In this document: one piece after another, positions 10,701 to 48,308 of the stretch
Numbering within the stretch: position 1 is the stretch's first letter
Layout: each line of letters opens with the position of its first letter
Virus record (IMG/VR): IMGVR_UViG_3300018494_000083
DNA length: 64,000 nucleotides
Reading direction: 5' to 3' (one strand)
Source of the DNA: a virus
Lineage: Duplodnaviria; Caudoviricetes
Translations under genes and position numbers: made by a program
The notes under the pieces: model-generated
The model's input: only the letters and a program-made list of their open reading frames with translations
Databases searched by the model: none
Told to the model about the DNA's origin: nothing

Positions 10701-13700
10701 CAAACACTAACCAACCTATTGAAGGTGACAATGCTCCTGTAATTACTGACTCTGTTGAGATTAAAGCATCTCTCGTCTCTAGTTACTGGTGTGTAGATGG
10801 TGCTATCACCTCTTACTCGCCTTCTGACTACTATCTTGCACTTGAGGAATATAATGACCAAGGTCATATCCGATATGTGCAGACAGACGGTGTAAATAAC
10901 CGTTATAAGAGAATTGCTACATATGACATGTGGATCCGTAATGCGGATAATACACTTGCTATGTACTCTTCTGTAACTCACAAAGTCGTTCTTAAAGATA
11001 ACAATGGCAACATCGTTTATACCTCTTCCGATGGTATCAGAGCACAGCCTCCTGCTGACGCTCAATCTACCGGTTACTGGTATGACGCAAGTGGTGCACA
11101 GATCATCGTTAATAACCAGATCTGTTCTACTGATAATTTCACTTGTCATATTATCGGTTATGAGGATATCTATACAGAGTTCGTTGATGAAGGTGATATG
11201 CCTGAATATAACAACCCTGAGTATCCTACTAATGGTAACCTTATGTTCTCCCACTGGTCTCCTGTGGTTCCGAGCATTTCTAAGAACGAATGTATCTATT
11301 CACACTTTATCTCGGGTTATACCTCTGCTCCTCTGAACCCTGCATTCTATAAGGATGGTTACGAGGCTTATGAGAGCGACGGTAATGGAAACCCGCTTTC
11401 CTATAAATTGACGAAAGTCGAATCTGCATTTACTGAGACTGGAAATACTGAGCTCGTTATTCCTAAGGCTATTGATGGTATTCCGATCAAGGCTCTGGGA
11501 GATAGACTCTTCAGCTCGATGTTTGCTGGTGGTAGAGGTGTAACTGCTGTCTACTTTGAAACCGGTTCTGAAGTTGAATATATCGGAAACGAAGTATTCT
11601 CTGGATGTACCGACCTGCAGACAATTGAAATCCCTGACTCTGTAAAGCATCTTGGTGAGAATGTATTTAACAACTGTACTGCCACTATCATGTGGACGGG
11701 TAACCCGACTATTACAAATATTGGTAAGTACGCATTCAATAACTGTGCAAGTGAATATATGAAAGTTAACTGCCAACCCAGAGAAAGAAATATCCCTGAT
11801 AGCTTGGTAACCATTGAAGAGCATGCATTTGCTAACTCGAGGATGGATATCAACTGGGGCAGTGTTTCTAAGACTGAGGTAATCGGTAGCTATGCATTCC
11901 AGTCTAGCACAGCTGAAAATATCACGCTTCCTGGCTCTCTCCGTGAAATCGGTTTGAGTGCATTTGGCGGTTGTGAAAATCTCACCGAAATTACTATTCC
12001 AAGATCTACAAAGAGAATTAATGCTGGTGCATTTAACGGATGTAGGAATCTTGCAACGGTAACTCTTGCAAACGGTATTGACCTTGAATATATCGGTACG
12101 GGTAAGACTGTCTTTAATGGTACTGCATTTGCTGGTACTTATGAAGAGGCTGCTACTCATACTACTGATAAACACTGGGTATCCACCGGTGGCGGTAAGG
12201 CACTCTATCTTGATTCTAACAATGGTAAGTATCTCCTCTGTGTTGAGAGTGGAACTACCAGACTTCCCGTTGACAGCAGCACTCTGCTTATTGCAGAATC
12301 TGCTTGTGAAGGCATTATAACTCTTACAAATTTGACGATGGAAGCGTCGTCTAATACAAAGTATATCAATAGCAAAGCCTTCAAGGGTACAGCTATTGCT
12401 GGTACGGTTACTATTCCTAATAACGTAAAAGTTATCGAGGAATCTGTCTTTGAGAACTGTAGTGCTGTCAATACTGTGGTACTTGGCACTGGTGCAGAGA
12501 TTATCCAGTCTTATGCATTTGCTAACTGCGGTGTTGGAACGGTTACCTTTAATGAGGGACTTAAGAGACTCGAAGACTACGCATTCTATAACTGCCAGAA
12601 TATTACAACGGTTGCTCTTCCTGTATCGGTAGAGTATATCGGCGACTTTGTATTCAATAAATGTAACGCAATTCAAATCATGAAAGTTCCCTATGTCGGC
12701 AGAACTAAAGACTCTAATAAGACATATGACTCTGTATTCGGATACTTCTTCGGTTATCAGATCAACCCTGACTCTGTTAAGGTTGGTGATAATCTTACTG
12801 GAAAGACCATCTTCTTTGATACAGAAAAAGCCATTTCTTATGGTACAGAGACAACTATTATGTCTGTCGATGTTAACACTGGAACGCCTGAAGTTCCTGT
12901 AATGGTAAACATGCTCAAGTTTGTAGCAGGACCTAGCGGAAGTAGCATCTACATCCGTAACTCTGTTGCATCTCAGGGCTATGACACTATCGTTGAAATC
13001 ACTGAGGGAGCTACCTATAAAGAAACTTACTATACCTTCCCGAATGGATCGACACCTTATGTAATCACTTCGATTATGAACGATGACAACATCATGGTTT
13101 ATAACAGAGATTACGTTGATCTTATGAAGGAATCTAATATCGCACCTACAACTCAATACTTCAATGAGACCGAGTTTGAGGAATACTATATTCCTAGCTC
13201 GATCAGAGAGATTCATCTGCTTAAGACAGAACGCATTCCGTTCGGTGCATTCCAGAACATTGCAAGTCTCCAGACCTTTACAATCGACGGCAACTGCCCG
13301 ATTTCTGATATTGGTGTTGGTGCATTTGCTAACTGTACTGGACTTTCTACCATTAATGGATTGAGTTTTGCTATTACACTTCGTAACGTTGGAGCCGGTG
13401 CATTCGCTGCATGCTCTAGCTTGACTAGTGTAGAACTTCCTGCCGGTGTTGTATCTATTGGTGATTCGGTATTCAACGGATGTGCCAACCTTGCCACACT
13501 TGCAGTTCCTGCATCTCTTGAAGAAATCGGTGTAGACGCTCTTAAAAATACTGCAATTCAATATAATACTTCTGGTAATATCAAGTACCTCGGCAACTCG
13601 ACAAACCAGTATCTCTGGGCTATCTCTACGGTTGATCCCGATGTTGCGAACAATACTCTTGCTGAGTCCACTGTTGGTATTTACTACGACTGCTTCAAGG

Positions 13701-15805
13701 GTTGTGTAAATATGGAACAGATCGCTATTACCCAGAACGTTAAAACTATTTATGATCGTGCATTCATGATCTCTGAGCTGGATGCAAATGGTAACTATAT
13801 TGGAACACCTCCCAAGCTGAATTCTATCGCTTGTACAGGTAATGCTAAGTTCAATAGTGTAGATGGTATCTTGTATGCTAATTCTTACACTGAACTTGTT
13901 GCATATCCTATGGGTAAGTCCAACACAAGCCAGATCATAATCAATGGTAACACAACTATCGTAAGACCTTATGCTTGTTATGGTGTAAAGAATTCGAAGT
14001 TTGCATTTACCACCGCTTTGACTCGTATCGGAGACCACGCATTCTACGGTGCGGCAGGACTCGCTTCGGCAACTATCAGCTTTGTTATCGTTCAGGTAAC
14101 AGACGATATGTTCTGGAGATGCTCGAATGCTAACCTTAAGTTTGAGGGTGAACTTGCTGAACTTGGTGAGAGATCCTTCTATATGTGTGCTAACCTCTCT
14201 GGTATTCGTCTTGCTAATACAATTGAATCTATTCCTGAAGAGTGCTTCTATGGATGTACTAACCTTGTAAACTTTACGGATAATACCGGAACTGGTGGAT
14301 TCGTAATTCCTGCAAGTGTGGACTATATTGGTCCTAATGCATTCTATGGCGTAGCACCTACTGGAAATAACCTTCCCTACTCGATTAGCTTTGAGATGGG
14401 ATCTAACCTCTTGAGTATCGGACCTTCTGCATTTGCGGGAGTAAGAACTCAAACTCTTGCAATCCCTGAGACCTGTAAGTCTATTGGTAATAAAGCATTC
14501 TATCAGTGTGGACTTACCAGTATCAAGATTCCTGCAGCCGTTGAGACCATTGGTACTTCGGCATTTGAAGGATCTGAAAGACTTACAAGTGCAGATATCG
14601 GTATTGGTGTCAATTCGATTGGTAGCAAAGCCTTTTACGGTTGTACATCTCTTTCGACAGTTAATATGAGTGCAAGTATGGGTAGCAACGTTGCTATGGT
14701 TAATATCGATGCATTTGAAAATAATGCTTATGATAGACTCTTTGTCGTTCCTAAGGACGCAACACCTAACTTCGTAAATGCTACCAACTGGTCAACTTAT
14801 GAGATCTTTATCATTGATAAGGATGATTTTGAGAGTGGTATCACTACTCTTGAGGTAACTGTTAATATGAATGACAACTTTGGTATTTCAATTACCAAGT
14901 ATCCGACACCGGTTACCAAATTTAATAATACAACTGGTCACGAAGAAACCATCTACAAACCTGAATTGACTACGATCATTTGGGGTGATGGAACTTATTC
15001 GTGGACTTCTTACTGTGGCGAACCCGATGCTGAAGGCAACATTCCTGTCGATAGGGCAGTGGATGGTAATGGCAAGATTCTCGGTGTTGGCGTTCAGTTC
15101 AACAGAGCAAACCGTACACATTCCGATCAGTATGAGAAGAATTATAATCATAACCGTTATGTACTTACTAATGCAGAGTATAATACTTGGGTATATACAA
15201 ATGCAGATGGTAAGCAGGAGATGAGATATAACTATACTATAGCTACTGTTGACGGTGAATATGTCGGAGAACCTAAGCATTGTCTTTACGATACTAGTGA
15301 GAAGAATACCTTTACTATCAAGATTGTCAACAGAGGCAATTGGAAGTGCGGTACTTATATTCTCGGTAGCCAGAGCTACAACTCTCGTATCAATTCTGCC
15401 ATCCTTGATGAGCATATTGAAGACTACGGAGCAAATATGTTCTATGGCGCTACTGGTATGAAGACGATCTCTCTCCCTGGCATGTATCTGAGCAAATATA
15501 CCAAGGTGGGTAATAACTTCATGACCAACTGTAGTAATGCAGAAATGGTTGCTGTAAACCTGCCTAAATCTGTTACTGTAATTGGTTCGAATGCATTCGC
15601 TTACTGTTCACATCTGGAATATATCAACCTTAACAACGTTGAAGAAATTCAGAGTGGCGCATTTGCCGGATGTAGCTCGCTTCCTAACGTAACGCTCGAA
15701 AAGATCCAATCGCTTGGTGCAAATGCATTCAATAGCTGTAATGAACTCTATAGAGTAATTCTGGATACTGATGCAATACCTAGCGTAACGAGCACGACTT
15801 TCTAA
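4733..15805 (+). CDS. Giant 3690-aa putative virion adhesin: LamG-like + CotH-kinase-like region + LRR + BspA-type (LRR_5) repeats
   Basis: QGTSSQIYAKKNYK, FIGRYNFNYDKG, VDNRAKNMF, YDMDS motifs; many IGxxAFxxCxxLxxIxIPxSV repeats from about 11450 to the end. Confidence 0.8.
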   Translation: MPKVIGKMTTTDADEIIAYGDHIASSTSDSTPINKRVPKAFYAFNSNKTAVYESLEDYEAGVSKPIGPVSGATSLIPKDTIVFLTGESNAYIRLANKAGGLPNFIPIAGGESKIFTDMAEAENYAKNIGEVGEIITYIDTENEEVIVYKIDINRVLTDVATSFLVQLYSTEIQTSYTLTTGQSCEVGFVYNEKYGNDTTNKPGTITYQIKRPTDEKFVTISHPNLVYNINPTTVTDPNDPSYELGKTYCPVYFDPADYGYDFAEGENTIRITVTGGESRKQKSMDFTVNVIAMYLEPDSAFSDATVKNMQIITYAWYCFGEGVEKTVYLDITDDATGVKKTIVKDIGTSSGAYNWSTINLSDLFPGKESYHGTYSMEQYCVITGTIDTDNVIKSDSLYFNIMYCESNNPVPLISASISANKIDYGDNAYITYAVYSYNASTEYTNNVVRTIYYYTGTDELGQELTADAEGALLVVADDATPSATQIRRRDTGLEIAEGRYVVKIIYDDEDVTFKNGAAKDRWAITDYPDPKTATTIFLELSCTNEHGTTAKTFMLELGSVSGDYNLNPASVPTFCYFTSSGKSNASESKASWTCFQGGANTGKVLEASLQNLNYVNNGWIEDDEGAIALHLNGSAKCTIPILFNDQYLYYRNDGDFVEATNTIAGSGRTIVIDFKVSNVLDYGTPCISLINNTEGRGLIVTPQEAYLTNENFKLHYNSAGSISNKDSIPFVQIKDNERIQLTIVIENENASSGKMNTTQFIRMYLNGELSKALSFSSYYFSQNTKPSLVLGSNDATLDVYSVRCYEMALKDSDIIQNFIADRPSIKEKMAEYDKNNIYNTSGGMSGIKLVYDKAKKLYPCFLVTGQLSPIKGNKTKVGIIYTEPASTAEGFETKINCMDYYTKGDNTEEKIYLCETNVQGTSSQIYAKKNYKFKFVLIKTKDYQNVTSYYVKSEDGTDETYCEYKPFVFKKWYGPGNTEYWVKIADSQQSDTYQTTSTYRVNDIVYYAKAQWQCVKACDFTGSSTNGTDETSVFAPIVTASQSNVLIFDATDGTEEGYRYYFVPAGSEFYYRGEQNSNIAQYLIQDETRIRQASALQLNAETGAHHVNIGVNDEISESKFKYKLFSEGNYMGAAESTICVKADYMSPDGINSDNGRLFPKFFEDPIPPQRNNPYGEDNKDCFICIPGFRCLIFQRDTETSEINFIGRYNFNYDKGSTKSFGLENDGDEDADGNITNTTKAQKWEYLDNKDDICNFKSHKLLEPIPQIDSDGRVTGSKIAALSALESTYPDQGDLEDVGLEPDYMHMQVMYSWVLQRANYWEASSETVVTPFTYDGNYYYNERDYRKAIFIKEFERHFKKSHVINYYICVETIALVDNRAKNMFMSCYDVYHDTNRYAQYRTEGKDTTEAKALSEVNIRFTSGSISSVRDCINADTGEFNFNLIDWENSIFPIWYTSLYDMDSCGGVDNNGRNIYNYDVEIHDIYAYDADGNPTYCFNGEGSVFWCMVEDAFGAEIKARWNTLRDSTKTLLSPEIMFNEYMTKGVETLPPVVYNEDQRFKYLDIFTDGYYDITTQSDIFTSIYQYLCQGSKKYHKLWFVEKRISFLDSKYISPQYLANNISFRINKGTNVYVTPDEIAINVTPSTTQYQYCEYGNSAGTYYGGKCRAGETITIKPSAAGIMQDIVFKVFGSNNISSIGDISHLYPSKPDFRYATLLKDLIIGSSREGYTNSYLTSEYMSTINLPLLQKFDISNCDALTGSIDMTGCTNIQEIYAVGTNVPSILVPNGGSLRVMKLPRSITTLKLQNQKYIENLSLEDYSNLTHLYLQDVAGIEIPELVMKATNLKYARLINVNWVLDGKDVLNKLMACGGLTEAGGEIDKCVLTGSIIVNNVSKVNQELWTDYWASYIADGSLRFTFGESANFFYATYYKTNATDVQVEGTTGANGYIQEVVRTVAEEGDATWYCELLTDTFGNGANNINKSMFRPVLLATNTNQPIEGDNAPVITDSVEIKASLVSSYWCVDGAITSYSPSDYYLALEEYNDQGHIRYVQTDGVNNRYKRIATYDMWIRNADNTLAMYSSVTHKVVLKDNNGNIVYTSSDGIRAQPPADAQSTGYWYDASGAQIIVNNQICSTDNFTCHIIGYEDIYTEFVDEGDMPEYNNPEYPTNGNLMFSHWSPVVPSISKNECIYSHFISGYTSAPLNPAFYKDGYEAYESDGNGNPLSYKLTKVESAFTETGNTELVIPKAIDGIPIKALGDRLFSSMFAGGRGVTAVYFETGSEVEYIGNEVFSGCTDLQTIEIPDSVKHLGENVFNNCTATIMWTGNPTITNIGKYAFNNCASEYMKVNCQPRERNIPDSLVTIEEHAFANSRMDINWGSVSKTEVIGSYAFQSSTAENITLPGSLREIGLSAFGGCENLTEITIPRSTKRINAGAFNGCRNLATVTLANGIDLEYIGTGKTVFNGTAFAGTYEEAATHTTDKHWVSTGGGKALYLDSNNGKYLLCVESGTTRLPVDSSTLLIAESACEGIITLTNLTMEASSNTKYINSKAFKGTAIAGTVTIPNNVKVIEESVFENCSAVNTVVLGTGAEIIQSYAFANCGVGTVTFNEGLKRLEDYAFYNCQNITTVALPVSVEYIGDFVFNKCNAIQIMKVPYVGRTKDSNKTYDSVFGYFFGYQINPDSVKVGDNLTGKTIFFDTEKAISYGTETTIMSVDVNTGTPEVPVMVNMLKFVAGPSGSSIYIRNSVASQGYDTIVEITEGATYKETYYTFPNGSTPYVITSIMNDDNIMVYNRDYVDLMKESNIAPTTQYFNETEFEEYYIPSSIREIHLLKTERIPFGAFQNIASLQTFTIDGNCPISDIGVGAFANCTGLSTINGLSFAITLRNVGAGAFAACSSLTSVELPAGVVSIGDSVFNGCANLATLAVPASLEEIGVDALKNTAIQYNTSGNIKYLGNSTNQYLWAISTVDPDVANNTLAESTVGIYYDCFKGCVNMEQIAITQNVKTIYDRAFMISELDANGNYIGTPPKLNSIACTGNAKFNSVDGILYANSYTELVAYPMGKSNTSQIIINGNTTIVRPYACYGVKNSKFAFTTALTRIGDHAFYGAAGLASATISFVIVQVTDDMFWRCSNANLKFEGELAELGERSFYMCANLSGIRLANTIESIPEECFYGCTNLVNFTDNTGTGGFVIPASVDYIGPNAFYGVAPTGNNLPYSISFEMGSNLLSIGPSAFAGVRTQTLAIPETCKSIGNKAFYQCGLTSIKIPAAVETIGTSAFEGSERLTSADIGIGVNSIGSKAFYGCTSLSTVNMSASMGSNVAMVNIDAFENNAYDRLFVVPKDATPNFVNATNWSTYEIFIIDKDDFESGITTLEVTVNMNDNFGISITKYPTPVTKFNNTTGHEETIYKPELTTIIWGDGTYSWTSYCGEPDAEGNIPVDRAVDGNGKILGVGVQFNRANRTHSDQYEKNYNHNRYVLTNAEYNTWVYTNADGKQEMRYNYTIATVDGEYVGEPKHCLYDTSEKNTFTIKIVNRGNWKCGTYILGSQSYNSRINSAILDEHIEDYGANMFYGATGMKTISLPGMYLSKYTKVGNNFMTNCSNAEMVAVNLPKSVTVIGSNAFAYCSHLEYINLNNVEEIQSGAFAGCSSLPNVTLEKIQSLGANAFNSCNELYRVILDTDAIPSVTSTTF

Positions 15806-15821
15806 TAATTAAGTACTACAA

Positions 15822-15862
15822 ATCTCTAAGGGATCTATATGGTCCCTTAGAGAAATTTTTTA
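15822..15862 (+). terminator. Terminator-like hairpin between the two LRR genes
   Basis: TCTCTAAGGGATC/GGTCCCTTAGAGA stem then AATTTTTT. Confidence 0.7.
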
Positions 15863-15877
15863 TTCAGGAGGAAACTC

Positions 15878-18800
15878 ATGAAGAATCAGGGAAAAATATT
15901 TGTCCCGTATTCTCAGTACTATGATTACCTCGATCACAATACATGGGGAACTACATATAGAAATAGATTGTACTACTCCGGTTCAAAAGGTCTTGTGTAT
16001 GATGGTCTGAATGCGAGCAATGCCGCTGCTTCTGGTTCTGATATTTCCCGCTATCGTGTAGGTAAAGGTACAAATAGTGCCGGAAACGGATATACGACAG
16101 CATTCGAAGGTCAGACCTTGCTCGGTATTCCTAAATACTACGATAACGGCGATCTTCCTGTTACCGTTATCGGAACCCATGCTTTTAGCATGAATACGGA
16201 TATTCAAAGAGTATCCATCCCCGATTCAGTGGAAATCATTCAGGATTACGCTTTCTATGGTTGTAAGGGTATTAAATTCGTCCTTATGACAAGAACTACT
16301 CCTCCCGAGATCGGTATGAACACATTCGAAGAGAATAGTGCAGACCGTATCTTTGTTGTCCCTGACTCGGTAGGTAACACAGTTCGTACTGCATATACAA
16401 GTGCACCGAACTGGCAAAATTATGCTCACCTTATTATTACTCAGTCCGAGTATGAGAAGATGAGTACTGGATCTGGATTCACACACTTTGACATTAAGAA
16501 GACAACAGCCGGTGAATTTGAGGTAACCATCAATGTACAGAAGTACGATGATAGTATCATGACTGTCATCTGGGGTGATGGAACTTCTCAGGTTTGTGGT
16601 GGTGTTGCCGAAGACGGAAGTCCTATTGTTGGTGAATCTTTGACTCATATTTACAACCCCGGCGAATATACAATTTCGTTCATTGCAAGAGGTCCTTGGA
16701 ACTTAAACAATGGTGCATTCTTGCTTGGTAACGTTGCTAAGAACGCATATCTGATCAACGCTCACTTTGATGAATACTTTGCTGCATACGACAGAGGAAC
16801 TTCTCAGGCTAAACCTGAGTATACCATCGCTGATACTGCTATCTTTACTGGTGCTATCAATATGGAAAGCCTCAGCCTTCCTAAAGGTATCGTTCAGCTT
16901 CCCGAGAATCTTCTCAGTGGTTTGTATTCACTTGTAAGCTTGCAGTTGCCTTTCGTCGGAAGACATATCGACCCGTCAACTGTTGCTGATGCTCTGTTCG
17001 GTCGTATTTTCTCGACCAATCAGTACGGTACAGGCGATAAGCCTACTATCGTAGTTAATCAGAAATATGGCGATGGAGACGGCGACGTGCACAGCTTCTA
17101 TATGCCTGCAGGATTGAGAAATATAACAATTCTGTCCGGTGAAATTGGAGCTGGTGCATTCTCTGGTTGTGAACAGCTTGAAAGTATTATCATTACCGAA
17201 GATATCACTACCTACGGTGCATATGCTTTCTATGGTTGTACTAACTTGGAAAACTTTGATATTCCTGATACTGTTACAACTATCGGAGCTCACTGCTTCG
17301 ACGGATGTAATAATTGGGAAGCTACCAGAATTCCTTCTGTACTGACAGCTATTCCCGATTATGCATTCAATGAGTGTAACAAGATCAGTCTGAGCACACT
17401 TCCTTCAGGACTGACTACAATCGGTAGCCATGGTTTCACTAACTGTGCTGCTATTAAATTGGCTAGTCTTCCTGCTACTTTGGCATCTCTTGGAGATGCG
17501 TGTTTTAAGGGATGTGCTAATATTACCCTTTCTGAACTTCCGGAAAGCTTGACAACTCTCCCTGCAGAATGCTTCAGTGGATGTGCTAAAGTAACATTTA
17601 GTGAACTTCCTTCCGGAATGACAATTATCCCCGATGGAGTCTATGAGGGATGTACTCTTGTTACATTCTCTAACTTCATTACTGGTACTACCAAAATTGG
17701 TGCCAACGCATTTAAGAACTGTGCAAACGTAGAATTCGATGAACTTCCTTCGACTCTTACTGAGATCGGGGCAAACGCATTCTATGAGTGTAAGAAAGTT
17801 TCTTTTGATAGCTTGCCTAATGGAATTACATCGATTGGAGAGTATGCATTCTACTCTTGTTTGAATGTAACCTTCTCGATATTCCCTCCGAATATTCAGG
17901 CTATTAATGCTGGTACCTTTAAGTCTTGTGTCAATGTCACATTCTCTGCATTCCCTGAGAATATTGTTCGTATCGGAGAATCTGCATTTGAAGGCTGTTA
18001 CAACGTTCGTTTTGCCGCTCTTCCTAATACAGTAACTGAAATCGGTGCGAAAGCATTCATGAGCTGTACTGCAATGAGAATGGCAACGATCTCAAATAGA
18101 CTTGTAACTATTCCTGATCATGCATTTGATACCTGTACAAATATGACACTCAGCTATATCCCTGCATCGGTAACATCTATCGGTAAACGAGCATTCGCTG
18201 GTTGTGTGGGAATTGTTGGAAGCCTTTCTTTCGGTTCTGCAGCTAACGGTACCGGTTTGTCTGGTGTAGCTGGAAATACATCTATCGCAGTAGATGCGTT
18301 TGAGGATTGCGGTGCATCGTCTATCCTTAACTTTAGATTCTACAGCGGCTTGTCTAATGCCTATGTACCTTCTAATGGTTATGAGAATGGTTGGGGAGCA
18401 CTTCAGTTCTCTATTCAGAAGCTTATGGCATATGAACCTACCAAAGGTAGAGACTATGACACATACTTCACATTTGACGAGGTAGATCTTGGCGAAGGTC
18501 AAATCGGATTTAAGCTCGTCGACTACTCTAATCTTATCAAAAATAAAAGTCTTCAGCCTCCGGAAATCTTCATGTTCGGTCCTACTTATATCAATAGTAC
18601 TGGTACCGAAGGTCACATTGTTGCGATCGGTCCTGACGTCTTTAACATGGACACGAATGCTGATGCACAATATTTCTTCAGTCACTGTGAAGACATGAGC
18701 TTTACGGATGGTTGTTCGATCGATGAATTTGAAGAAGCTTGCTTCAAAGGTAATACTGTTATCAAAGACTTCAGACTTCCTGATAGTCTTAAGGTAATTG

Positions 18801-21040
18801 GTAGGTCCTGCTTCGAAGGTTGTTCCAACCTCTCTATCAGTGAGCTTCCTTCCGGAATTAAAGAAATCGGTGAGAGGGCATTCTATAACTGTGACAAGGT
18901 TAACTTCAGCGTTATTCCGGCGTCTATTGAGTCTATCGCTGCAGGTGCATTCGATGAGTGTAGTAACGTTTCTGCACTTTATCTCGACTCTTGTAACTCG
19001 CTTCAGGAACTCGATATCTCCTCGTCTGACCATATTCAGGAAGTTTCTCTTCCTATCCATGGTTATAACCTGAAGACTTTCAGAACCAGAAACGATGAAT
19101 ATACACTTCTCTGTAGATTCAGACATACTGGTGCATCTGGTATGTATATGGTTCTCGATGCTTCTCCCTCTAACCATACAAATGGATTCAAGATCTTTAT
19201 CTCGGAAAACGTTCTTTACGCAGGAAACTGTGTACTCACAAGAAACGTACAACCGAACGTAGAGTATACGATTATAATCCGTGGAACTGCTAGTGATGAA
19301 ATCGTTGCTAACTCTCTCATTCTTATCGAGGATAGAGTTGAGTTTAATCGCTTCGATTTCGGTTATAAGCATTCTACCGGCTACGGTCTTGATTCCTTTA
19401 ATGTAGATGAAGCTGGTGTAGTTCTCACTAAGCTTGAGTACTACAATAAAGCTTATAAATACTATGATGCTGTAAGCTATCCTTCTGGTGCCGCACTTAC
19501 AAATGATGAAGTCCTTCAGGCTCATCTGAATACTAAGCTCGGTTATCTCCAGGATGGTACCGGTATCAGACTCTTCCTACTTCCTCCCAGATGGAAGTAT
19601 GAGACTTATCGAATCCGTCTCGACCTTGATACAGAGAACGTAACCCGTACTGCTTACAATATGGATGACAGACTCTGTAACCTTACTTGGTATGAGCTCG
19701 CTGCTCTTGGTAGAGAAGGATATCTCGATACATCTGACTGTACTACCTCTACGCCTTATAACGCTAAGCTTTCTCTCGATATTGATAGAGGTGAAGGTGT
19801 TGTTACTGAGAAGTGGATTCAGGTTGGTGAATGTAAGCATACCAAGCTTGAATATCCTACCGGATCTTCTTACTCGAACTGTAACGGTGGTGCAGAAGTT
19901 ACTGAAGGAACTGGTCTTCCCAACATGTGGTGGGAATTGGTCGGTCTCTTCACAGATAAATCCGAAGACATGGGTGTATGTCCTATGACATTCGGAATGA
20001 AGGATTTGTTACCTGAAAAATCGCAGTTGTATTCTGCTTCTCATGGAATGAAGGATATGTATGTTGGTCTCTCTGACTACGGTGAGGCAACTAACAACCT
20101 CGCATCCTATACTCATCCCGCTGGTGCAGATGCTGATATTCTGTGGTTGGTTGCAAATGGTACGACTTGTATCTCTTCGATCAAAGTTACCAGAGGTGCA
20201 ACTGTAACAGGTTTCAACTTCAACTCTTCTACTACAGCTAACTATGTAAACCTTCCTGTTAATACCCAATACGGTGGTAAGATTGCGAAGAGAAAATATA
20301 ACGGAACTGTTAATGATTCTCTCGTAACTGGATATTTCGATGGTGCCGAGACACCCGATCCGTCGACTGCTCTTTACTTTGATGCAACTCTGGGTGAAAT
20401 CGTCCGTGATGAAGCTTCTGAATGTTTGTGTCTGACAAGAGGAGCAAGAATCGGTATTCCTGTAAGTGCTGGTAATACTGTCGATATATCTTACTACAAC
20501 TCTTGGAACCTTACTGGTTGGAGAGATTGTATTGCTCGTACTAACGGTAACGGTGCACACTTCAATGCACTTCCCGATGAAGTAAAGCAAGTATCCGAAA
20601 CTGTACTGAAATATACCAACATTGGTGGCTTGCACAAAGTCATTAATGAGACCAAAGATAAGATGTTCCTTTACAGCTTATCTGAGGCTGGTATGTATAA
20701 CGCTACAGATCCATATATGTATGAAGGTGATGCTTATCAGTTCTACCAGCCGAGTGTTGCGTCAAACGGCGGCAGAACTGCCGTCCGTAAGAAGTTCCTC
20801 ATCAACGACTCACCTAACTATACATACTGGTGGCTTCGCACTCCGGATAATATTCCATATTGGTATCAAGGAGGTTTAGTAACTCATAATAATGTACCAG
20901 TTATAGATAAAGATGGTAAAACATGGAGCAACGCATATGCGGCTTTCTATATTCATGGTGTTTGCTTCGGGCTTTCAACCAAGCAAAGAAACCAAACAAG
21001 ATACTTCAACGCGGCGCTTGCGCTGAAATCTGAGAGGTAG
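15878..21040 (+). CDS. 1720-aa BspA-LRR protein with C-terminal DUF6273/C-type-lectin-like domain; putative receptor-binding protein and target of the cassette array
   Basis: AGGAGG RBS; regular 23-aa LPxxLTxIGxxAFxxC repeats; C-terminus MTFGMKDLL...GWRDCIART...LPDEVK...DKMFLYSLSE...EGDAYQFY...YWWLRTP...HGVCFGL. Confidence 0.85.
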   Translation: MKNQGKIFVPYSQYYDYLDHNTWGTTYRNRLYYSGSKGLVYDGLNASNAAASGSDISRYRVGKGTNSAGNGYTTAFEGQTLLGIPKYYDNGDLPVTVIGTHAFSMNTDIQRVSIPDSVEIIQDYAFYGCKGIKFVLMTRTTPPEIGMNTFEENSADRIFVVPDSVGNTVRTAYTSAPNWQNYAHLIITQSEYEKMSTGSGFTHFDIKKTTAGEFEVTINVQKYDDSIMTVIWGDGTSQVCGGVAEDGSPIVGESLTHIYNPGEYTISFIARGPWNLNNGAFLLGNVAKNAYLINAHFDEYFAAYDRGTSQAKPEYTIADTAIFTGAINMESLSLPKGIVQLPENLLSGLYSLVSLQLPFVGRHIDPSTVADALFGRIFSTNQYGTGDKPTIVVNQKYGDGDGDVHSFYMPAGLRNITILSGEIGAGAFSGCEQLESIIITEDITTYGAYAFYGCTNLENFDIPDTVTTIGAHCFDGCNNWEATRIPSVLTAIPDYAFNECNKISLSTLPSGLTTIGSHGFTNCAAIKLASLPATLASLGDACFKGCANITLSELPESLTTLPAECFSGCAKVTFSELPSGMTIIPDGVYEGCTLVTFSNFITGTTKIGANAFKNCANVEFDELPSTLTEIGANAFYECKKVSFDSLPNGITSIGEYAFYSCLNVTFSIFPPNIQAINAGTFKSCVNVTFSAFPENIVRIGESAFEGCYNVRFAALPNTVTEIGAKAFMSCTAMRMATISNRLVTIPDHAFDTCTNMTLSYIPASVTSIGKRAFAGCVGIVGSLSFGSAANGTGLSGVAGNTSIAVDAFEDCGASSILNFRFYSGLSNAYVPSNGYENGWGALQFSIQKLMAYEPTKGRDYDTYFTFDEVDLGEGQIGFKLVDYSNLIKNKSLQPPEIFMFGPTYINSTGTEGHIVAIGPDVFNMDTNADAQYFFSHCEDMSFTDGCSIDEFEEACFKGNTVIKDFRLPDSLKVIGRSCFEGCSNLSISELPSGIKEIGERAFYNCDKVNFSVIPASIESIAAGAFDECSNVSALYLDSCNSLQELDISSSDHIQEVSLPIHGYNLKTFRTRNDEYTLLCRFRHTGASGMYMVLDASPSNHTNGFKIFISENVLYAGNCVLTRNVQPNVEYTIIIRGTASDEIVANSLILIEDRVEFNRFDFGYKHSTGYGLDSFNVDEAGVVLTKLEYYNKAYKYYDAVSYPSGAALTNDEVLQAHLNTKLGYLQDGTGIRLFLLPPRWKYETYRIRLDLDTENVTRTAYNMDDRLCNLTWYELAALGREGYLDTSDCTTSTPYNAKLSLDIDRGEGVVTEKWIQVGECKHTKLEYPTGSSYSNCNGGAEVTEGTGLPNMWWELVGLFTDKSEDMGVCPMTFGMKDLLPEKSQLYSASHGMKDMYVGLSDYGEATNNLASYTHPAGADADILWLVANGTTCISSIKVTRGATVTGFNFNSSTTANYVNLPVNTQYGGKIAKRKYNGTVNDSLVTGYFDGAETPDPSTALYFDATLGEIVRDEASECLCLTRGARIGIPVSAGNTVDISYYNSWNLTGWRDCIARTNGNGAHFNALPDEVKQVSETVLKYTNIGGLHKVINETKDKMFLYSLSEAGMYNATDPYMYEGDAYQFYQPSVASNGGRTAVRKKFLINDSPNYTYWWLRTPDNIPYWYQGGLVTHNNVPVIDKDGKTWSNAYAAFYIHGVCFGLSTKQRNQTRYFNAALALKSER
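20840..20962 (+). other. Expressed variable segment (TP...HGV, 41 codons) of the C-terminal lectin-like domain
   Basis: Bounded by ACTCC and CATGGTGTT, the same ends as the array cassettes; uses TTA/ATA/GTA/AAA codons unlike the CTT/ATC/AAG-rich body of the gene. Confidence 0.8.
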
Positions 21041-21232
21041 ATCATGAGTTTGTGATTAGCAATCACATGGTTCATATTCCGCATATCTATTAGATGATAT
21101 TCGTCGATAGTTGATATTATATTGGATATGCGGTCCCTCTTGACTCCGGTAACATATAGGATAGTATGTATGCAATATGTATGAGAAAATCTATTAGACG
21201 GAGACAAGTTATTTACTAAAAAATAAAAATAT

Positions 21233-21260
21233 GGAGATAGGCATTTCTGCCTATCTCCTT
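21233..21260. terminator. Bidirectional terminator between convergent operons
   Basis: GGAGATAGGCA/TGCCTATCTCC stem, A-tract left, T-rich right. Confidence 0.75.
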
Positions 21261-21270
21261 TATTTGTCGT

Positions 21271-21408
21271 TTAAGATCGAGTATTATCATCTTTATCTTT
21301 AGGAGGTCTATCATTTCTCCGCTGTTCTTCAACCTCGTAGATTCTGGCTGCAACCATTGCTGCAAGTCCGAGACCACCCAAGATATACCAAATAATATCA
21401 GCAATCAT
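21271..21408 (-). CDS. 45-aa single-pass membrane peptide (not in ORF track)
   Basis: MIADIIWYILGGLGLAAMVAARIYEVEEQRRNDRPPKDKDDNTRS; starts 4 nt after the upstream stop and ends just before the terminator. Confidence 0.55.
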   Translation of the reverse strand: MIADIIWYILGGLGLAAMVAARIYEVEEQRRNDRPPKDKDDNTRS

Positions 21409-21412
21409 AATC

Positions 21413-22924
21413 TTACATTAAACTTAGAAACCTCAAATATTCAGACACAGCAATATCAATATCAACCTGAATAGGCATTCCGTACATTTCTGGATTCTCA
21501 TAGTCACAATACTCGATAGGCGTATTAATGAGCATCGCTATATTTCTCAATACAGGATTATTCTCAGTTTCCATTCCCATAGAATACTGTTTCATGAGCT
21601 TCTGGAATTTAGGTGACTGTTCGATCTTCTTCAATTGCTTTGTGGAGATCTTGCGTCGCTTAATAGTCTTACTCAAGTTACCAGTCATAATCTGGTTGAT
21701 GTAGATGAATCCCATATTCTTCATAATTTTCTTAAAGATAATCATGAGACGAATATAGTATTTCTTACTGATTGTCTTGAGATCATAATAACCACCGAAG
21801 TACTTAGCAAAGAACTGAAGGATTGTATCACTGAATGTGAAACTCTTCAAATGCTCTTTGTAATAAGCAATCTCATCTGGTTCGATGTGTACTTTAAAGC
21901 GTCGCTCAATCTTCTTAATTGTCTCCTTGATGTTTACCGAGGAGATAACAATATCAAGGTCACTTATGCGGGCATTATTAGCCTCGAGTTTCTCAAGACC
22001 GCTAAGTTCATCAGTCTTCGAACTAGTGGAAATATCACAATAGTCATATTTATCCTTGGCTAACAATGTTTGACGAATCTGATAGGGGACTGCTACCTGA
22101 ATGAGGAAGATGAAGTTCTTCTTGAAGATAGCCTTCGGAAGAAGATCAACCACGACAGCAGCAATCAATCTATCAGTATAAATGGTTGGGGTGAGTTTCT
22201 TGTTTCGTGCTCTGTTCCAAAGAGTCTTATCGGATGTACGAGTCTCAGTAAGATGACTGTTTACTGTAACTGCCAACTTATTAAAGAGCTCGGAATCTCC
22301 CTGGAAGAGCGGGAAGTAGCTAGCAAAAACTTGATAAAGATAATCCTTAATGGTGGTTTCATTTTCACCACGAATTCTCGCAAGCTCTGCCATTCGTTCA
22401 TTATTCACATAGTAATAGTGACATACCACAGGGATAGTCAACTTATATGCTATGGACAATGCCATCAATGCTTTTCCATGTTCATTTAAGAACTGAAGTG
22501 CGTGAAGGTCAATATCCTTAACCTCGTCACTAGGACTGAGGTCGATAGAATAGTAATCTTCAACCATCTCAAATATCTTCTCGATCACACTATCAGTTAA
22601 GAGCAACTCAGCAATATCACTGAGGAATGTCTTATATGAGTAGTGAATATTTTGGTTATCGATCTGATACTTGATGCAAAGAAGTCCAGTTAAGAATTCT
22701 TTGTCAGGGTCATATAACTTGAAGAAAGTGTTAGCATATCTACACACAGAATCCAAATTCTTACTATATGCCGACTTGGTAATAATAAAGTTATTCAGAT
22801 CAGGAGAATCTTGCTCAAAACACTTATCAAATGTAACGATGACATTCTTACCGTTCTTCTTATATATGGCAGGTTTCACTTCGGTATTTTCAGCATCGAT
22901 GTTTGGTAATTCATCTAAATGCAT
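21413..22924 (-). CDS. 503-aa conserved jumbo-phage protein; candidate sigma-like promoter-specificity subunit of non-virion RNAP
   Basis: Clear ORF with RBS; function inferred only from size and proximity to the chaperonin, as for AR9 gp226/gp228. Confidence 0.4.
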   Translation of the reverse strand: MHLDELPNIDAENTEVKPAIYKKNGKNVIVTFDKCFEQDSPDLNNFIITKSAYSKNLDSVCRYANTFFKLYDPDKEFLTGLLCIKYQIDNQNIHYSYKTFLSDIAELLLTDSVIEKIFEMVEDYYSIDLSPSDEVKDIDLHALQFLNEHGKALMALSIAYKLTIPVVCHYYYVNNERMAELARIRGENETTIKDYLYQVFASYFPLFQGDSELFNKLAVTVNSHLTETRTSDKTLWNRARNKKLTPTIYTDRLIAAVVVDLLPKAIFKKNFIFLIQVAVPYQIRQTLLAKDKYDYCDISTSSKTDELSGLEKLEANNARISDLDIVISSVNIKETIKKIERRFKVHIEPDEIAYYKEHLKSFTFSDTILQFFAKYFGGYYDLKTISKKYYIRLMIIFKKIMKNMGFIYINQIMTGNLSKTIKRRKISTKQLKKIEQSPKFQKLMKQYSMGMETENNPVLRNIAMLINTPIEYCDYENPEMYGMPIQVDIDIAVSEYLRFLSLM

Positions 22925-22940
22925 ACCTAGTCACCTGCCT

Positions 22941-23597
22941 TTAAGGATTTACTTTTGTTCTGAATTCAAAAATCTTTAAGCATACCGCATTAAGTTCACG
23001 ATAGAACTCATCGATATTGCTGATGTTTACGGGTCCATGACTATGAGTAGAAATGGACATGTAATTCTTTCTGATGATGAGGTGATCTCCTTGTTTGATA
23101 ATATCTTCTTCATCAATAAACTCTCCAATGGTAAAGATATCATCGGGATGAATATTGCGAGATTTCTCGTATCTTACTCGGATCGACTTCTCATCGAAAG
23201 AAGGATGCATAACAGAGTCAATGAAAGAATCCCAATTGGAATCCATCATCGACACAAACTTTTCATCATGAAGACCGGAGAATCTCGTACGATACTTTTC
23301 AAGATACTCTGCCTTAAGATCCTTGGCAGGATACATGATAATCTTGCAGACATCCTTGAGTGCTTCTCTTACTTCTTGATGTGTAGAAACGAAGACAATA
23401 TCATGAGTCTTAACGGCTTCCATAATATGTGCTACGTAATTATTCGGAAAGTCAGGATTGACTACTTTCTCTCCAGCATCATTGATAATCCATTTAAACT
23501 TGGAACTATCACTGTCTGAATAAGAAAGTCCGTAGGTTTTCATTGTGGTGTGAAGAGTCTTACCCATTCCTGGGAAAGCTGAAATGATGATTCCCAT
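22941..23597 (-). CDS. P-loop NTPase/kinase-like protein
   Basis: N-terminal Walker A IISAFPGMGKT. Confidence 0.65.
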   Translation of the reverse strand: MGIIISAFPGMGKTLHTTMKTYGLSYSDSDSSKFKWIINDAGEKVVNPDFPNNYVAHIMEAVKTHDIVFVSTHQEVREALKDVCKIIMYPAKDLKAEYLEKYRTRFSGLHDEKFVSMMDSNWDSFIDSVMHPSFDEKSIRVRYEKSRNIHPDDIFTIGEFIDEEDIIKQGDHLIIRKNYMSISTHSHGPVNISNIDEFYRELNAVCLKIFEFRTKVNP

Positions 23598-23600
23598 AGT

Positions 23601-24362
23601 TTAGATCCTTTTCACTTTCTTAGTAGTTTTCGTGGTTTTGGTTCGTGCTGTTGTTTTTACATTTTTGGTTGTTGGTGCTTGTTTAACACCTGGTTCATCG
23701 GTTTCGCCTTTATCTTTATTTTTTGGATGCTTAATGGCATTCTTTCGTCTCTGCATCTCCTGCAACTTAGCGAGTTTATTAAGATCCTTCTGAGCCTTAC
23801 GATTCTTTCTCAGAGATTCAGCATGTTGAACCGCCTTGTATAACTCAGGGAAATTCTTATATCCAACAATATGCTGGAGATTAAGAAGATTTGTATATCC
23901 ATTAGTTATTACATGGTGGAGAGCTGCAAATACTGAGAAATCGTAAGATAGAATTGCATATGGGTTTTTCGCACCCGCAATCTCATCAAACATCTGAGAT
24001 GAGATCTTCTTTTTAAACTCTTTAGCCAATAGTCCAGACTTATCATATGCAAAAGCGTATGTATATAAGAAGGACGGAGAGTTGGAGAAAATCTGCATAT
24101 CCATACCTTCAACTCCAACACCAGTTGATTTGTCATTTGGTTTAAAGGTAAGTACAATGTCATAGTGAATCCCCTCTACCGAGGAGGGGATTCTGACATG
24201 AATAAAGACAGCTCCAGTAGGAGCCAAATATGATGAACAAAGTACCCTCTTAGCAATCTCGTTGTACCGAGGAATAAACTTTTCCTTGATAGCATTGATA
24301 TTTAAGAAGGTTGCACCTTTACCTGCAGGGTTATTATAGAATTCACGGATAAAGAATGCCAT
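23601..24362 (-). CDS. Hypothetical protein with Lys/Thr-rich basic tail
   Basis: GAGGTG RBS; operon context. Confidence 0.7.
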   Translation of the reverse strand: MAFFIREFYNNPAGKGATFLNINAIKEKFIPRYNEIAKRVLCSSYLAPTGAVFIHVRIPSSVEGIHYDIVLTFKPNDKSTGVGVEGMDMQIFSNSPSFLYTYAFAYDKSGLLAKEFKKKISSQMFDEIAGAKNPYAILSYDFSVFAALHHVITNGYTNLLNLQHIVGYKNFPELYKAVQHAESLRKNRKAQKDLNKLAKLQEMQRRKNAIKHPKNKDKGETDEPGVKQAPTTKNVKTTARTKTTKTTKKVKRI

Positions 24363-24376
24363 ATTACACCTCGTTA

Positions 24377-26083
24377 TTAATCGTTAAGAGTATATCCCTT
24401 AGATACGATATCAAACTCATTGTTACCTCTTGTGGACAGGAATGCCTTAGAAGTAGCAAGAAGAGCCGCCATATCTGTAGCAAAGGTAAGAATTGCTATG
24501 TCTGTATGAGCCGAGTTAACGACATCAGTTGTGTCATTCTCACGAATATTCATAGGAACATAGCCGTTTTTCTCAAAGTGCTCAAGCACTTGGCATCTTG
24601 CTTCATCTTCACTACCACACTTGTTTGCTACAAGCTGGATGAACATATCCTCATAAGAGTCAATGATTGCACAAAGGATAAGTGCACGAAGATCATTCTT
24701 CTCGTCCTTAAGAAGTTCTGTAACGATTCTGGGAACGATCGTGTTACAGCCGGGGACGATGCCGTGTTTCATACAAGAGATAGCCTGAGGAATTCCGTCG
24801 TTTGCAAGTTCATAGTTGATGCTCTTTCTCTGAGGAGATGCACCGCCTACATAGAACTTAGCATAGTGTCTCGATAAGAATGCCTTTCTATCTTCAAGTT
24901 CGGAAATTGTATTGTTGTGAGCACTGCTATCCTGTTTAAGATCTTCAATCTTTGCAAGGATATCATCAAGACGAGCCTGAAGAGCCTGCTCATTGGTGTG
25001 AGGATTGTTGAATCTTGCACAGAACTCTGTCAAGAGAGCCTTATCACACCCGCCAGCACAAGCATCAATAGTTTTCATCATGATTGCAGTGGTAGACCAC
25101 TTCTTGGTAGTATCACTGTCTACGGGGGTAGCACCAAGAGTAGCACAAAGATCAAGGAACTCATCAGCAGCAGATGTTAATCTTGTCTGGAAGATAGGAC
25201 ATCTACTGATAGTTCCCTGAATTGCTGTAGAGTTGAGCTGAATAATTGTATTCTGAAGAATTTCAGAGATGCCGGTTGCAATGATAATGAACGAAGTGTC
25301 AGATCTCATTGCTTCATTACACAGCTCCATATATCTTTCAGGAGAGAGTTCGAGACGACCATTGATAATCAGTACTCTAGGATTATCATAGTTACGTCTG
25401 GAAAATCCCTCGAAGAATACATCGGAACAAATAACCGTGCCATCAATCTCTGCACCCTTTACAAGGTCATAGCTATGAGACTCGGTTGTAGAATTCTCGA
25501 TAATTACAAGAGGATCTACGCAGTTGAGTTCCTCGAAAAGCTTACAAAGAATATCAGTAAGCTCATCATCACCATCGACAGATGTATGGATTACGCTGCG
25601 AAGTTTCTTGAAGTTAATGATGGGATTGTTCTCCGCATCATAAGTAACGATCTGTTCTGCACTGTCTTCAAGAAGTGCATTGATTCCGTCGATAACAACT
25701 TTGAGCTCTTTCTGAAATACAGAAGGAGACACATTCTTAGTCTTGATAATCTCACGGAATGCATTATAGAGTTTACAAAGCAAGAGAATAGTAGTTGTGG
25801 AACCATCTCCAACTTCTTCAACCTGTTTATCAGCAACAGAAGTAATGGATCTGTGTACTGCAGATGCAATAGATCCACTGATGCTGATTCTCGACAAGAT
25901 AGTTTTACCATCTTTAGTTGCTTCAGGACGTACCTGGTTGTCGATGAGAATGTGTGATCCATAAGGACCATAACACTCTTTCATAATATTATAGATCTCT
26001 TTGAGAGCAATCTTGATAGTATTATGAAGATATGTCTCAGAGGCGATATTGTCTCTGAATAACTGGATATCATTCCCCGTCAT
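24377..26083 (-). CDS. groEL: Phage chaperonin (GroEL/Cpn60-TCP1 family)
   Basis: YGPYG, TKDGKTI, VGDGSTTT, GIVPGC, VVNSA motifs; 568 aa. Confidence 0.9.
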   Translation of the reverse strand: MTGNDIQLFRDNIASETYLHNTIKIALKEIYNIMKECYGPYGSHILIDNQVRPEATKDGKTILSRISISGSIASAVHRSITSVADKQVEEVGDGSTTTILLLCKLYNAFREIIKTKNVSPSVFQKELKVVIDGINALLEDSAEQIVTYDAENNPIINFKKLRSVIHTSVDGDDELTDILCKLFEELNCVDPLVIIENSTTESHSYDLVKGAEIDGTVICSDVFFEGFSRRNYDNPRVLIINGRLELSPERYMELCNEAMRSDTSFIIIATGISEILQNTIIQLNSTAIQGTISRCPIFQTRLTSAADEFLDLCATLGATPVDSDTTKKWSTTAIMMKTIDACAGGCDKALLTEFCARFNNPHTNEQALQARLDDILAKIEDLKQDSSAHNNTISELEDRKAFLSRHYAKFYVGGASPQRKSINYELANDGIPQAISCMKHGIVPGCNTIVPRIVTELLKDEKNDLRALILCAIIDSYEDMFIQLVANKCGSEDEARCQVLEHFEKNGYVPMNIRENDTTDVVNSAHTDIAILTFATDMAALLATSKAFLSTRGNNEFDIVSKGYTLND

Positions 26084-31265: not shown

Positions 31266-31757
31266 TCAAGAGATTACTTCAGCATATTGATTTGGGGATG
31301 CTAACTCAACCCCAAGGATTGAATCTTTTCTTGGCATTTGATCAGGAATAAACCGACCAAACTTAATGATGATATTGGGATAGTCAGATAGTTCAGAGAT
31401 GTAGGAAGCTATCTCATCCTTGTTGTAACCTGTATAGATTACAAATTCATCATTACAACCATGTGAACGGAAATACTTCACAAGTTCTAGAAGTTCGTCA
31501 TAAGTATCAAAAGGTTCAAGACCTCCACAAACTATAGCCTCACTGAGACCATTCTTTTTATATCGTTCATACAAGTTTGAGATGGATACTTGCATTACTG
31601 GAGCATTTGCGAGTTCTGAGTTTTGACAGATATTACAACCGGCTTCTATACAGCATTTGAAGCTGCATTTTGAGAAGCCAAGGAACATTGAGCATTTCTT
31701 ATAGTTCACAAAATCCTCATCCATGAAGTTGACAAGGTTTATAAAGTTTTGACTCAT
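31266..31757 (-). CDS. nrdG: Anaerobic RNR activating protein (radical SAM)
   Basis: CSFKC...C cluster motif, GGLEPFD, IYTGY; directly after nrdD. Confidence 0.85.
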   Translation of the reverse strand: MSQNFINLVNFMDEDFVNYKKCSMFLGFSKCSFKCCIEAGCNICQNSELANAPVMQVSISNLYERYKKNGLSEAIVCGGLEPFDTYDELLELVKYFRSHGCNDEFVIYTGYNKDEIASYISELSDYPNIIIKFGRFIPDQMPRKDSILGVELASPNQYAEVIS

Positions 31758-42739: not shown

Positions 42740-42760
42740 GTGTATCTCTTTATTTTTTTT
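42723..42760. terminator. Terminator bounding the left end of the cassette array
   Basis: AAGAGATACAC/GTGTATCTCTT stem then poly-T. Confidence 0.8.
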
Positions 42761-42772
42761 TGTTTCGATTTG

Positions 42773-48163: not shown

Positions 48164-48198
48164 TAGAGATGCTCTTAACGGGGCATCTCTATTTTTTT
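48164..48198 (+). terminator. Intrinsic terminator
   Basis: TAGAGATGCTC/GGGCATCTCTA stem then T7. Confidence 0.75.
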
Positions 48199-48200
48199 GT

Positions 48201-48308
48201 CACATACGTCTCATTAGTATATTTATTATGTGATCTTCCATCTTCCTTAATGGTGTTAAACCTAACTATGTAATATGCGTATATAGTCTGATTTGTGAAC
48301 ATTGGAGT
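48201..48308 (-). repeat. Orphan cassette
   Basis: ACTCCA start; TPMFTNQTIYAYYIVRFNTIKEDGRSHNKYTNETYV; 36 codons; abuts a terminator. Confidence 0.7.

Follow-up and report, generated by a model that had tools for sequence, protein, structure and literature searches.

The 64,000-nt stretch of DNA considered here, referred to as the window, comes from a phage (Duplodnaviria; Caudoviricetes; IMG/VR record IMGVR_UViG_3300018494_000083). Its gene P0001 carries near its 3' end a 123-nt variable segment, VR-D, and the origin of this segment is the subject of the present analysis. The features of the locus are as follows.

15878-21040, plus strand: target gene P0001 (1720 amino acids), encoding BspA-type leucine-rich repeats and then a C-terminal DUF6273 (C-type-lectin-like) domain
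20784-20844, plus strand: left arm, 61 nt ending in ACTCC, encoding (R)KKFLINDSPNYTYWWLRTP; repeated exactly in a second, headless slot
20840-20962, plus strand: VR-D, variable cassette of 123 nt (41 codons), a whole member of a stored cassette family
20955-21034, plus strand: right arm, beginning ATGGTGTTTGCTTCGGG, encoding GVCFGLSTKQRN..ALALKS
21035-21095, plus strand: short tail (tailA), comprising the ER codons, a stop codon, and the decayed start of the C-terminal-domain coding sequence of relatives
21233-21258, no strand assigned: bidirectional hairpin resembling an intrinsic terminator, which closes the target gene

Pfam places DUF6273 at residues 1544-1671 of P0001 (E 4e-10), and LRR_5 and DUF6273 also stand in the precomputed annotation of the related proteins. 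DUF6273 is described as a C-type-lectin-like domain with a C-terminal variable region (10.1101/2024.10.15.618418), and DUF6273 proteins are known targets of diversity-generating retroelements, or DGRs (PMC10743442; 10.1101/2024.10.15.618418). The variable region of P0001 lies at the C-terminal end of its C-type-lectin-fold domain, which is a DGR-type feature. An AlphaFold model of residues 1500-1720, based on a 14-row alignment, reached a predicted local distance difference test (pLDDT) score of 32, too low for use. Immediately 5' of the target gene, a 3690-residue LRR_5 protein is encoded at 4733-15805 (plus strand). It is kept in all relatives, and no variable segment was noticed in it.

VR-D reads TPDNIPYWYQGGLVTHNNVPVIDKDGKTWSNAYAAFYIHGV. 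It starts with ACTCC at 20840 (ACT CCG, the Thr-Pro of WWLRTP), ends with CATGGTGTT at 20962 (His-Gly-Val, followed by CFGL), and occupies the variable stretch of DUF6273, between WWLR and TP on one side and G and VCFGL on the other. These are the boundaries drawn by the first-pass annotation, a reading of the bare sequence, and its coordinates are correct. Its claim of a codon usage unlike that of the gene body is borne out by a codon scan. With 0.17, the G+C content at third codon positions (GC3) of VR-D is the minimum of 1679 sliding 41-codon windows of the gene (mean 0.36, standard deviation 0.07), and the synonymous-codon log-likelihood of a cassette model versus a gene-body model has its maximum at windows starting at 20801-20855. 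ATA encodes 5 of 107 isoleucines in the gene body versus 29 of 58 in the cassettes, and TTA encodes 3 of 124 versus 13 of 37 leucines. The segment had also been said to look recently inserted. The island of foreign codons is real, but every relative examined has such an island (GC3 of 0.14-0.26 in the variable segment versus 0.37-0.62 in the flanks), and it therefore marks an origin from a cassette library, not recency.

The 3' end of the gene is unusual as well. P0001 stops early, at ...ALALKSER* (the SER-stop end in the following), while most relatives extend approximately 155 residues further. Homology of the window to the full-length relatives breaks off at 21030-21034, and the short tail beyond aligns with their next ~60 nt (alignment A3) as GCAATCACATGGTTCATATTCCGCATATCTAT versus GCAGTCCCAAGGTCGGAATTACGCATATCTAT. 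The stretch at 21057-21151, GCAATCACATGG...CGCATATCTAT, is a decayed start of the relatives' C-terminal-domain coding sequence. It can alternatively be read as a junction of a cassette array with a hairpin in between; TTGACTCCGGTA at 21140-21151 equals the junction of cassettes C3 and C4 in the silent array of the window, which is described below.

Full-length relatives were obtained by a protein search with the C-terminal region (P0002-P0004, later P0012-P0024). Among 21 related proteins there are 15 distinct segments of 32-44 residues, set between sequences that are identical up to WWLRTP and again from GVCFGL. The segment is thus not invariant across related phages; it was invariance that the first-pass annotation had named as evidence against its own reading.

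VR-D sits in a module of approximately 0.25 kb, composed of the 61-nt left arm, the cassette, and a right arm of 40-77 nt. A second copy of this module lies behind a terminator hairpin and has no gene body; it leads into the C-terminal domain of ~155 residues, and a DGR-like reverse transcriptase (RT) gene follows ~4 kb downstream. On contig L007 this second slot forms P0007, a headless open reading frame (ORF) of 256 residues, in which a stub, the left arm, another cassette named VR-T (TPTQIYKG...), the right arm, and the C-terminal domain beside the RT follow one another. The stub VGKLTTRFFVLI is the translation of the terminator hairpin (z -3.7). The left arms of the two slots agree at 61 of 61 nt (L016 10907-10967 versus L007 10035-10095), and the window and contig L015 diverge directly 5' of 20784. 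The right arm matches the second slot exactly over 40 nt (20955-20994) and then at 73/80; it also holds a small GC-rich hairpin, GCGC/GCGC, at ~21009-21021.

The evidence that links the two slots comes from proteins of the same clusters, among which every combination of left context, cassette, and right context occurs except one.

Gene body, VR-D, SER-stop end: P0001
Gene body, VR-D, C-terminal domain: P0013
Gene body, VR-T, C-terminal domain: P0020
Stub, VR-D, SER-stop end: P0014
Stub, VR-T, SER-stop end: P0025
Stub, VR-D, C-terminal domain: P0022
Stub, VR-T, C-terminal domain: P0007 and P0026

Contigs that match base for base in all other respects show VR-D as well as VR-T beside either left context and beside either right context, which indicates that the slots exchange cassettes. 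The identical 123 nt of VR-D recur in other contexts in L015, L016, and L017. L015 combines the upstream side of L007 (6095 nt, 0 mismatches) with the left arm, VR-D, and the window at 20784-24934 (0 mismatches), while L016 and L017 equal the window at 9878-20994 (0 mismatches) and are joined inside the right arm to the downstream side of L007. The absence of mismatches over 4-11 kb points to one clone with alternative joints on both sides of the cassette. When P0014 was used as query for further spare-slot ORFs, only P0006 was returned, a stored homologue of VR-D that is described below.

Judged from these joints, VR-D probably reached the gene body by reciprocal exchange with the second acceptor slot, through inversion across the arms. 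The modules would recombine within their arms, and a crossover to the left or right of the cassette would invert the interval between them; two crossovers would amount to a reciprocal cassette swap. Starting from gene body, VR-T, and C-terminal domain in one slot and stub, VR-D, and SER-stop end in the other, a left-arm crossover would yield gene body, VR-D, and SER-stop end together with stub, VR-T, and C-terminal domain, which is the arrangement of the window. A second crossover, in the right arm, would give gene body, VR-D, and C-terminal domain together with stub, VR-T, and SER-stop end, as in L016 and P0025. The window would then represent an intermediate isomer after one crossover, with a protein that has a complete lectin-like domain and lacks the C-terminal domain, and with a headless RT-side slot that holds VR-T. 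VR-D itself would have occupied the spare slot for longer, its stored relative having since diverged or disappeared, and would not be a fresh copy of a cassette stored in this genome. The writing of library cassettes into a slot would be a separate, rarer step. Reciprocal exchange had been among the proposals of the first-pass annotation, with the active cassette leaving the library; the exchange is supported, but the partner is the second, inverted acceptor module of the same genome and not the library. Pfam returned no recombinase family for the 23 ORFs screened in the window or for 5 ORFs in the RT operon of relatives, which would favour the phage's general recombination functions as agent; a nearby invertase was rejected as a candidate on the same screen.

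Contigs of this kind raise the question of assembly. If the inversion alone were an assembly artefact, gene body, cassette, C-terminal domain, and RT would always stand in this order, with a silent module of stub, cassette, and SER-stop end in addition, and the joint of gene body, VR-D, and SER-stop end in the window would be a mis-join across the arms in a mixed population. The module (61 + 123 + 40 nt) exceeds assembly k-mers and most short reads, the European Nucleotide Archive (ENA) contigs named 'k141' come from an assembler that ignores read pairs, and most relatives (~15 proteins of 1873-1886 amino acids) have the canonical form. We nevertheless regard such an artefact as unlikely. P0001 occurs on two contigs from two sources, one of which, of 249,687 bp, seemingly runs through both slots, and inverted-type joints are found on 8 contigs versus 10 with canonical joints. 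Moreover, even under this explanation both cassettes still adjoin both left and both right contexts within the reach of k-mers, and the slot exchange stands.

A search for the donor of VR-D gives a consistent picture. The genome beyond the window was covered by a word index, not by a full-sequence search. All 37 of 37 words of VR-D are found at its slot and only 5 of 37 elsewhere in the genome, where an array of 16 units, ~168 kb beyond the end of the window, holds a look-alike. As a control, VR-T was recovered with 25 of 25 words at its place, ~90.5 kb past the window end. When either half of VR-D was queried separately, the index listed no look-alike. Stored alleles of relatives have 10-14 of 31-33 index words in common with VR-D, and no listed words in common with this genome's arrays, the 16-unit array included. 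This genome thus seems, on its word content, to hold at most a diverged member of the VR-D family. Exact pieces of VR-D or of the arms were absent from IMG/VR, JGI metagenome contigs, and INPHARED phages. A 20-mer of the left arm, TACTGGTGGCTTCGCACTCC, gave only two matches in genome contigs, both in rumen metagenome-assembled genomes (L018:2861-2880 and L019:346-365; Ruminococcaceae, Clostridia), which encode an unrelated GC-rich bacterial DUF6273 protein with YWWLRTP...GARPAMNL and are not the phage. These two contigs show the same domain grammar in bacteria; they are not evidence for the host of the phage.

The same index bears on the simplest alternative, in which the RT or gene conversion recently wrote VR-D in one direction from an identical silent cassette of this genome and the different contexts arose by independent writings. 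Stored members of the VR-D family do exist in relatives, and the look-alike in the 16-unit array could be taken for a trace of such a donor. An exact copy, however, scores 25 of 25 words in the control, against 5 of 37 for the look-alike, and between VR-D and the stored alleles of relatives there are 18-21 differences over 123 positions. Nor can the writing of a cassette place the gene body next to the short tail with the 43 kb that follow it, as a comparison of the window with L015 and L016 requires. A fresh copy is therefore improbable.

Two further features of the window concern stored cassettes.

42760-44984, minus strand: array of 20 silent cassettes of 96-123 nt, head to tail, each open from ACTCC; none is the donor of VR-D
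48190-48308, minus strand: isolated cassette-like unit (the '48201 orphan'), ACTCC plus 39 open codons, intergenic; weak, as it is a single unit

The cassettes are open in the frame set by ACTCC, the frame shifts at most junctions, and stop codons are present. The frame changes together with the stops rule out a single long gene or programmed frameshifting across the array. No homologue was found for the isolated unit. Comparison with a second array, L005:1284-3731, showed that it is homologous to 42760-44984, with most units in common and these 84-95% identical. The L005 array lacks window cassette C3 and has whole-unit insertions or replacements at its C6, C8, C10, C15, C18, C19, and C21, as against C13, C14, C17, and C19 of the window. 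These whole-unit gains, losses, and replacements indicate that the arrays turn over unit by unit.

VR-D had been described as identical to none of the window cassettes, and this holds: the best nucleotide matches to the 20 cassettes are 12-14 nt long (E at least 0.38). The further observation that it shares pieces with several of them is accurate as far as the motifs go, with TPDN in C3 and C15, CCWTATTGGTAT in C1, HG in C2, C3, and C5, and I..DG in the minus-strand unit starting at 48308, but there is no signal beyond chance. Without ACTCC, the longest exact word common to VR-D and the window cassettes is 9 nt; among 300 shuffles, the longest word was 9 nt in 127 and at least 10 nt in 91, with a median of 9. 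The common motifs would accordingly reflect no more than chance or common constraints of the fold. Since word sharing stays at the shuffled level, a mosaic of window cassettes was rejected. The proposal of mosaic conversion made in the first-pass annotation is thus not upheld, as the exact words are no longer than in shuffles and VR-D is colinear with one family. The sequence that array units have in common with the acceptor arms is limited to ACTCC and ~ATGGTG, and the extended homology behind segmental mosaic transfer of the pilS/vls/tprK type was not found.

That one family is stored in the arrays of relatives. The protein search with the C-terminal region returned P0006, a 55-residue ORF that is a homologue of VR-D without arms. 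It lies on contig L006, a cassette array in which ACTCC recurs at 72, 174, 283, 413, and onward; unit 283-412 of this array aligns end to end with VR-D (283-404 versus window 20840-20961, 86% identity). Two further stored alleles, one in L008-L011 and one in L012-L014, are identical at 102-103 of 123 nt (~84%), which brings the range over all stored alleles to 102-105 of 123 nt. All stored copies are bordered by other ACTCC units and not by arms. The first 81 nt of VR-D are 93-94% identical to the stored alleles, and these differ among themselves chiefly in the 3' third. As far as alignment goes, VR-D is thereby shown to be one complete unit of a cassette family that is kept silent in the arrays of relatives, and not a patchwork.

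The relation between live and stored segments extends beyond VR-D. L006:174-282 is the stored counterpart of the live segment of L002 (91.5%) and carries a TGA stop, as would be expected of silent DNA. The unit at L012+2125, in the same array, matches the live segment of P0016, and the array with stored VR-D alleles thereby holds stored counterparts of two other relatives' live segments. In the window array, C9 corresponds to the live segment of P0004 and C1 to that of P0005. Overall, 5 of 15 live segments in relatives have stored counterparts among the arrays examined, C1 and C9 included. The system thus comprises an expression site and a promoterless library whose members appear at that site. 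A donor outside the window, the third source considered in the first-pass annotation, is supported at the level of the family by these silent colinear cassettes, but no exact donor was found.

The stored alleles of relatives also invite the explanation that the VR-D module was acquired in a co-infection, through ordinary recombination with a related phage that has the exact cassette in its library. Such an import would account for a library of the phage's own without VR-D, relatives with 6-11% divergence in other regions still have identical arms, and the relatives' alleles (10-14 of 31-33 words) seem closer to VR-D than the phage's own look-alike (5 of 37). We give it little credence, as no relative with exact VR-D was found outside this clone and the alternative contexts within the clone would be left unexplained.

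The RT beside the second slot calls for a comparison with DGRs. In the relatives, the gene runs for ~155 residues after ...ALALKS; downstream of it come three ORFs, then a non-coding stretch, then an RVT_1 gene. The RVT_1 protein (E 6e-19), with YVDD and FGAPFSQ motifs, is encoded ~4 kb 3' of the slot in L001, L002, L003, L007, and L016. Against NCBIfam it gave sub-threshold matches only, to group II, retron, and Drt RTs. A 16-nt sequence of the right arm, TGGTGTTTGCTTCGGG, is common to the 3' boundary of the target and the non-coding stretch 5' of the RT (L001, E 8e-4). No template repeat precedes TGGTGTTTGCTTCGGG in the RT-upstream stretch of the relatives, and no second copy of any live segment was found within 19-26 kb around the RT in four relatives. 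A template with adenine-only mismatches beside an RT, which the first-pass annotation had named as the mark of an ordinary DGR, is therefore absent beside the RT of the relatives. Mismatches between live and stored segments fall on all four bases (for VR-D, 5 of 18 at a stored A, with A making up 33%), which ruled out adenine-specific mutagenesis.

These results also bear on whether VR-D was made by mosaic conversion from several cassettes or by classical A-to-N mutagenesis of one template. Its 3' third is far more diverged from the stored alleles than the 5' two-thirds, its end matches the end of another unit in L012 over 13 nt (E 0.1), and a DGR-type RT is present in relatives. Against this stand word sharing with the window cassettes at the shuffled level, mismatches on all four bases, and the lack of a template repeat beside the RT in four relatives, and we consider an origin of this kind very improbable.

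Several points weigh against reciprocal exchange between the slots. With 61 and 40 nt, the arms offer little length for general homologous recombination, and none of the screened ORFs was recognised as a recombinase. That P0001 and P0007 lie on one contig is deduced from the equal length of the longest contig of each (249,687 bp); the inverted orientation of the two modules in this genome and their distance of ~134 kb are likewise inferred. Left context, arm, cassette, arm, and right context together span ~226 nt, which no single read or k-mer covers, and contigs that show all three elements together could have been mis-joined where populations are mixed; only the eight pairwise adjacencies can be relied on at the level of the contig sequences. 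The last third of VR-D (window 20918-20962) is only ~60% identical to every stored allele seen, which leaves room for partial conversion. Finally, the apparent absence of an exact donor from the genome depends on the word index.

Exchange between the slots leaves the filling of a slot as a step of its own, and the arrays hold traces that bear on it. Footprints of both arms, 9-12 nt long, occur at array junctions in relatives: TGGTGGCTTCGC stands immediately 5' of ACTCC in L006 (minus strand, unit start 1088) and at L008:776-787, and GGTGTTTGCT or GGTGTTTGC(T) stands at unit ends at L012:199-208 and L010:134-142. For 78 distinct junctions this is far above chance. The footprints suggest that array units formerly sat in a slot, and cassettes may move both ways between slots and arrays. 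A tentative scheme, possible but less than probable in our judgement, could be called 'write, then flip'. A template-less DGR-type RT would make a faithful copy of one of more than 100 silent cassettes in whichever module is adjacent to it; recombination between the arms (~134 kb) would then deliver the module to the gene body, with the previous tip parked in the spare slot. Some parked tips would return to the arrays for storage and thereby account for the footprints of the arms at the junctions there.

The system resembles several known ones in part. With DGRs such as that of Bordetella phage BPP-1 (mtd, template repeat, and brt) and the gut-phage DGRs on DUF6273, it has in common a target at the variable C-terminal part of a DUF6273/C-type-lectin-like domain, in what is probably a receptor-binding protein; in relatives, an RT that carries the YVDD and FGAPFSQ motifs is encoded ~4 kb beyond the slot, and a 16-nt match resembles an IMH/IMH* pair. 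It differs in that no template repeat is present and the variants are whole unrelated units of 96-130 nt instead of adenine-templated positions. The templates seem to be arrays of many silent units, and two acceptor slots trade contents. Invertible tail-fibre segments and shufflons (Mu G/Gin, P1 C/Cin, R64 shufflon/Rci) likewise use inverted repeats to join alternative C-terminal ends to a constant body, in a reciprocal and reversible exchange. In the present case, however, the surroundings of the slot revealed neither an invertase nor a tyrosine recombinase, the repeats are coding arms of 40-61 nt and not short recombinase sites, the interval is ~134 kb, or about half the genome, versus a few kb, and the contents of the slots come from a large library.

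Silent-cassette antigenic variation (Neisseria pilE/pilS, Borrelia vlsE, Treponema tprK, Anaplasma msp2) also combines one expressed site with many promoterless silent cassettes, and stored copies can contain stops, as L006:174 does with its TGA. Those systems build segmental mosaics via long flanking homology, whereas whole units are exchanged here, array homology comprises only ACTCC and ~ATGGTG, and the host of the system is a phage with an RT. In inverted-repeat genome isomerisation (herpesvirus L/S segments, chloroplast inverted repeats), orientation isomers of a large segment likewise occur, in equimolar-like fashion; in the phage, the repeats are tiny, lie inside a coding region, and alter the end of a protein.

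Other genes of the window were noted in passing. The anaerobic ribonucleotide reductase NrdD is apparently split (33719-35464 and 31754-33040, minus strand), and its upstream part has an intein-splicing/LAGLIDADG domain. A direct repeat of ~230 nt at 33069-33301 and 36768-37002 (72-78% identical, 3.7 kb apart) adjoins pieces of a divergent family B DNA polymerase (220 amino acids at 36074-36736 and 498 amino acids at 36938-38434), and may be the sign of a polymerase gene that was split and is flanked by repeated sequence of an intron-like or mobile kind. A Cpn60/TCP-1 family chaperonin (24377-26083, minus strand; E 1e-24) and a FolD-like methylene-tetrahydrofolate dehydrogenase/cyclohydrolase (54524-55747, minus strand) are also encoded.

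Phages change their receptor tips by DGR point hypermutation, by invertase flipping of two or a few fibre ends, or by swaps of fibre genes with other phages. The probable reciprocal exchange between two slots would be a way to change a phage binding tip that we found described nowhere; for phages, full-text searches of the literature yielded no account of cassette libraries, of DGRs without a template, or of exchange between two slots. The missing donor was informative in this respect, as it led to the second slot and indicates that a live cassette need not be a recent copy from the library. This phage of ~250 kb appears to keep a large stock of ready-made binding loops of ~40 residues, together with two loaded slots that trade places. 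If this is true, host range would be switched in discrete, pre-tested steps, the lectin-like domain would be a natural scaffold that tolerates unrelated loops (15 were seen between identical arms), and the phage would show with unusual clarity how genome isomerisation can alter a phenotype. The 'write, then flip' scheme, if true, would constitute a new form of programmed receptor switching in a virus, one that combines retro-copying, a cassette library, and genome isomerisation.

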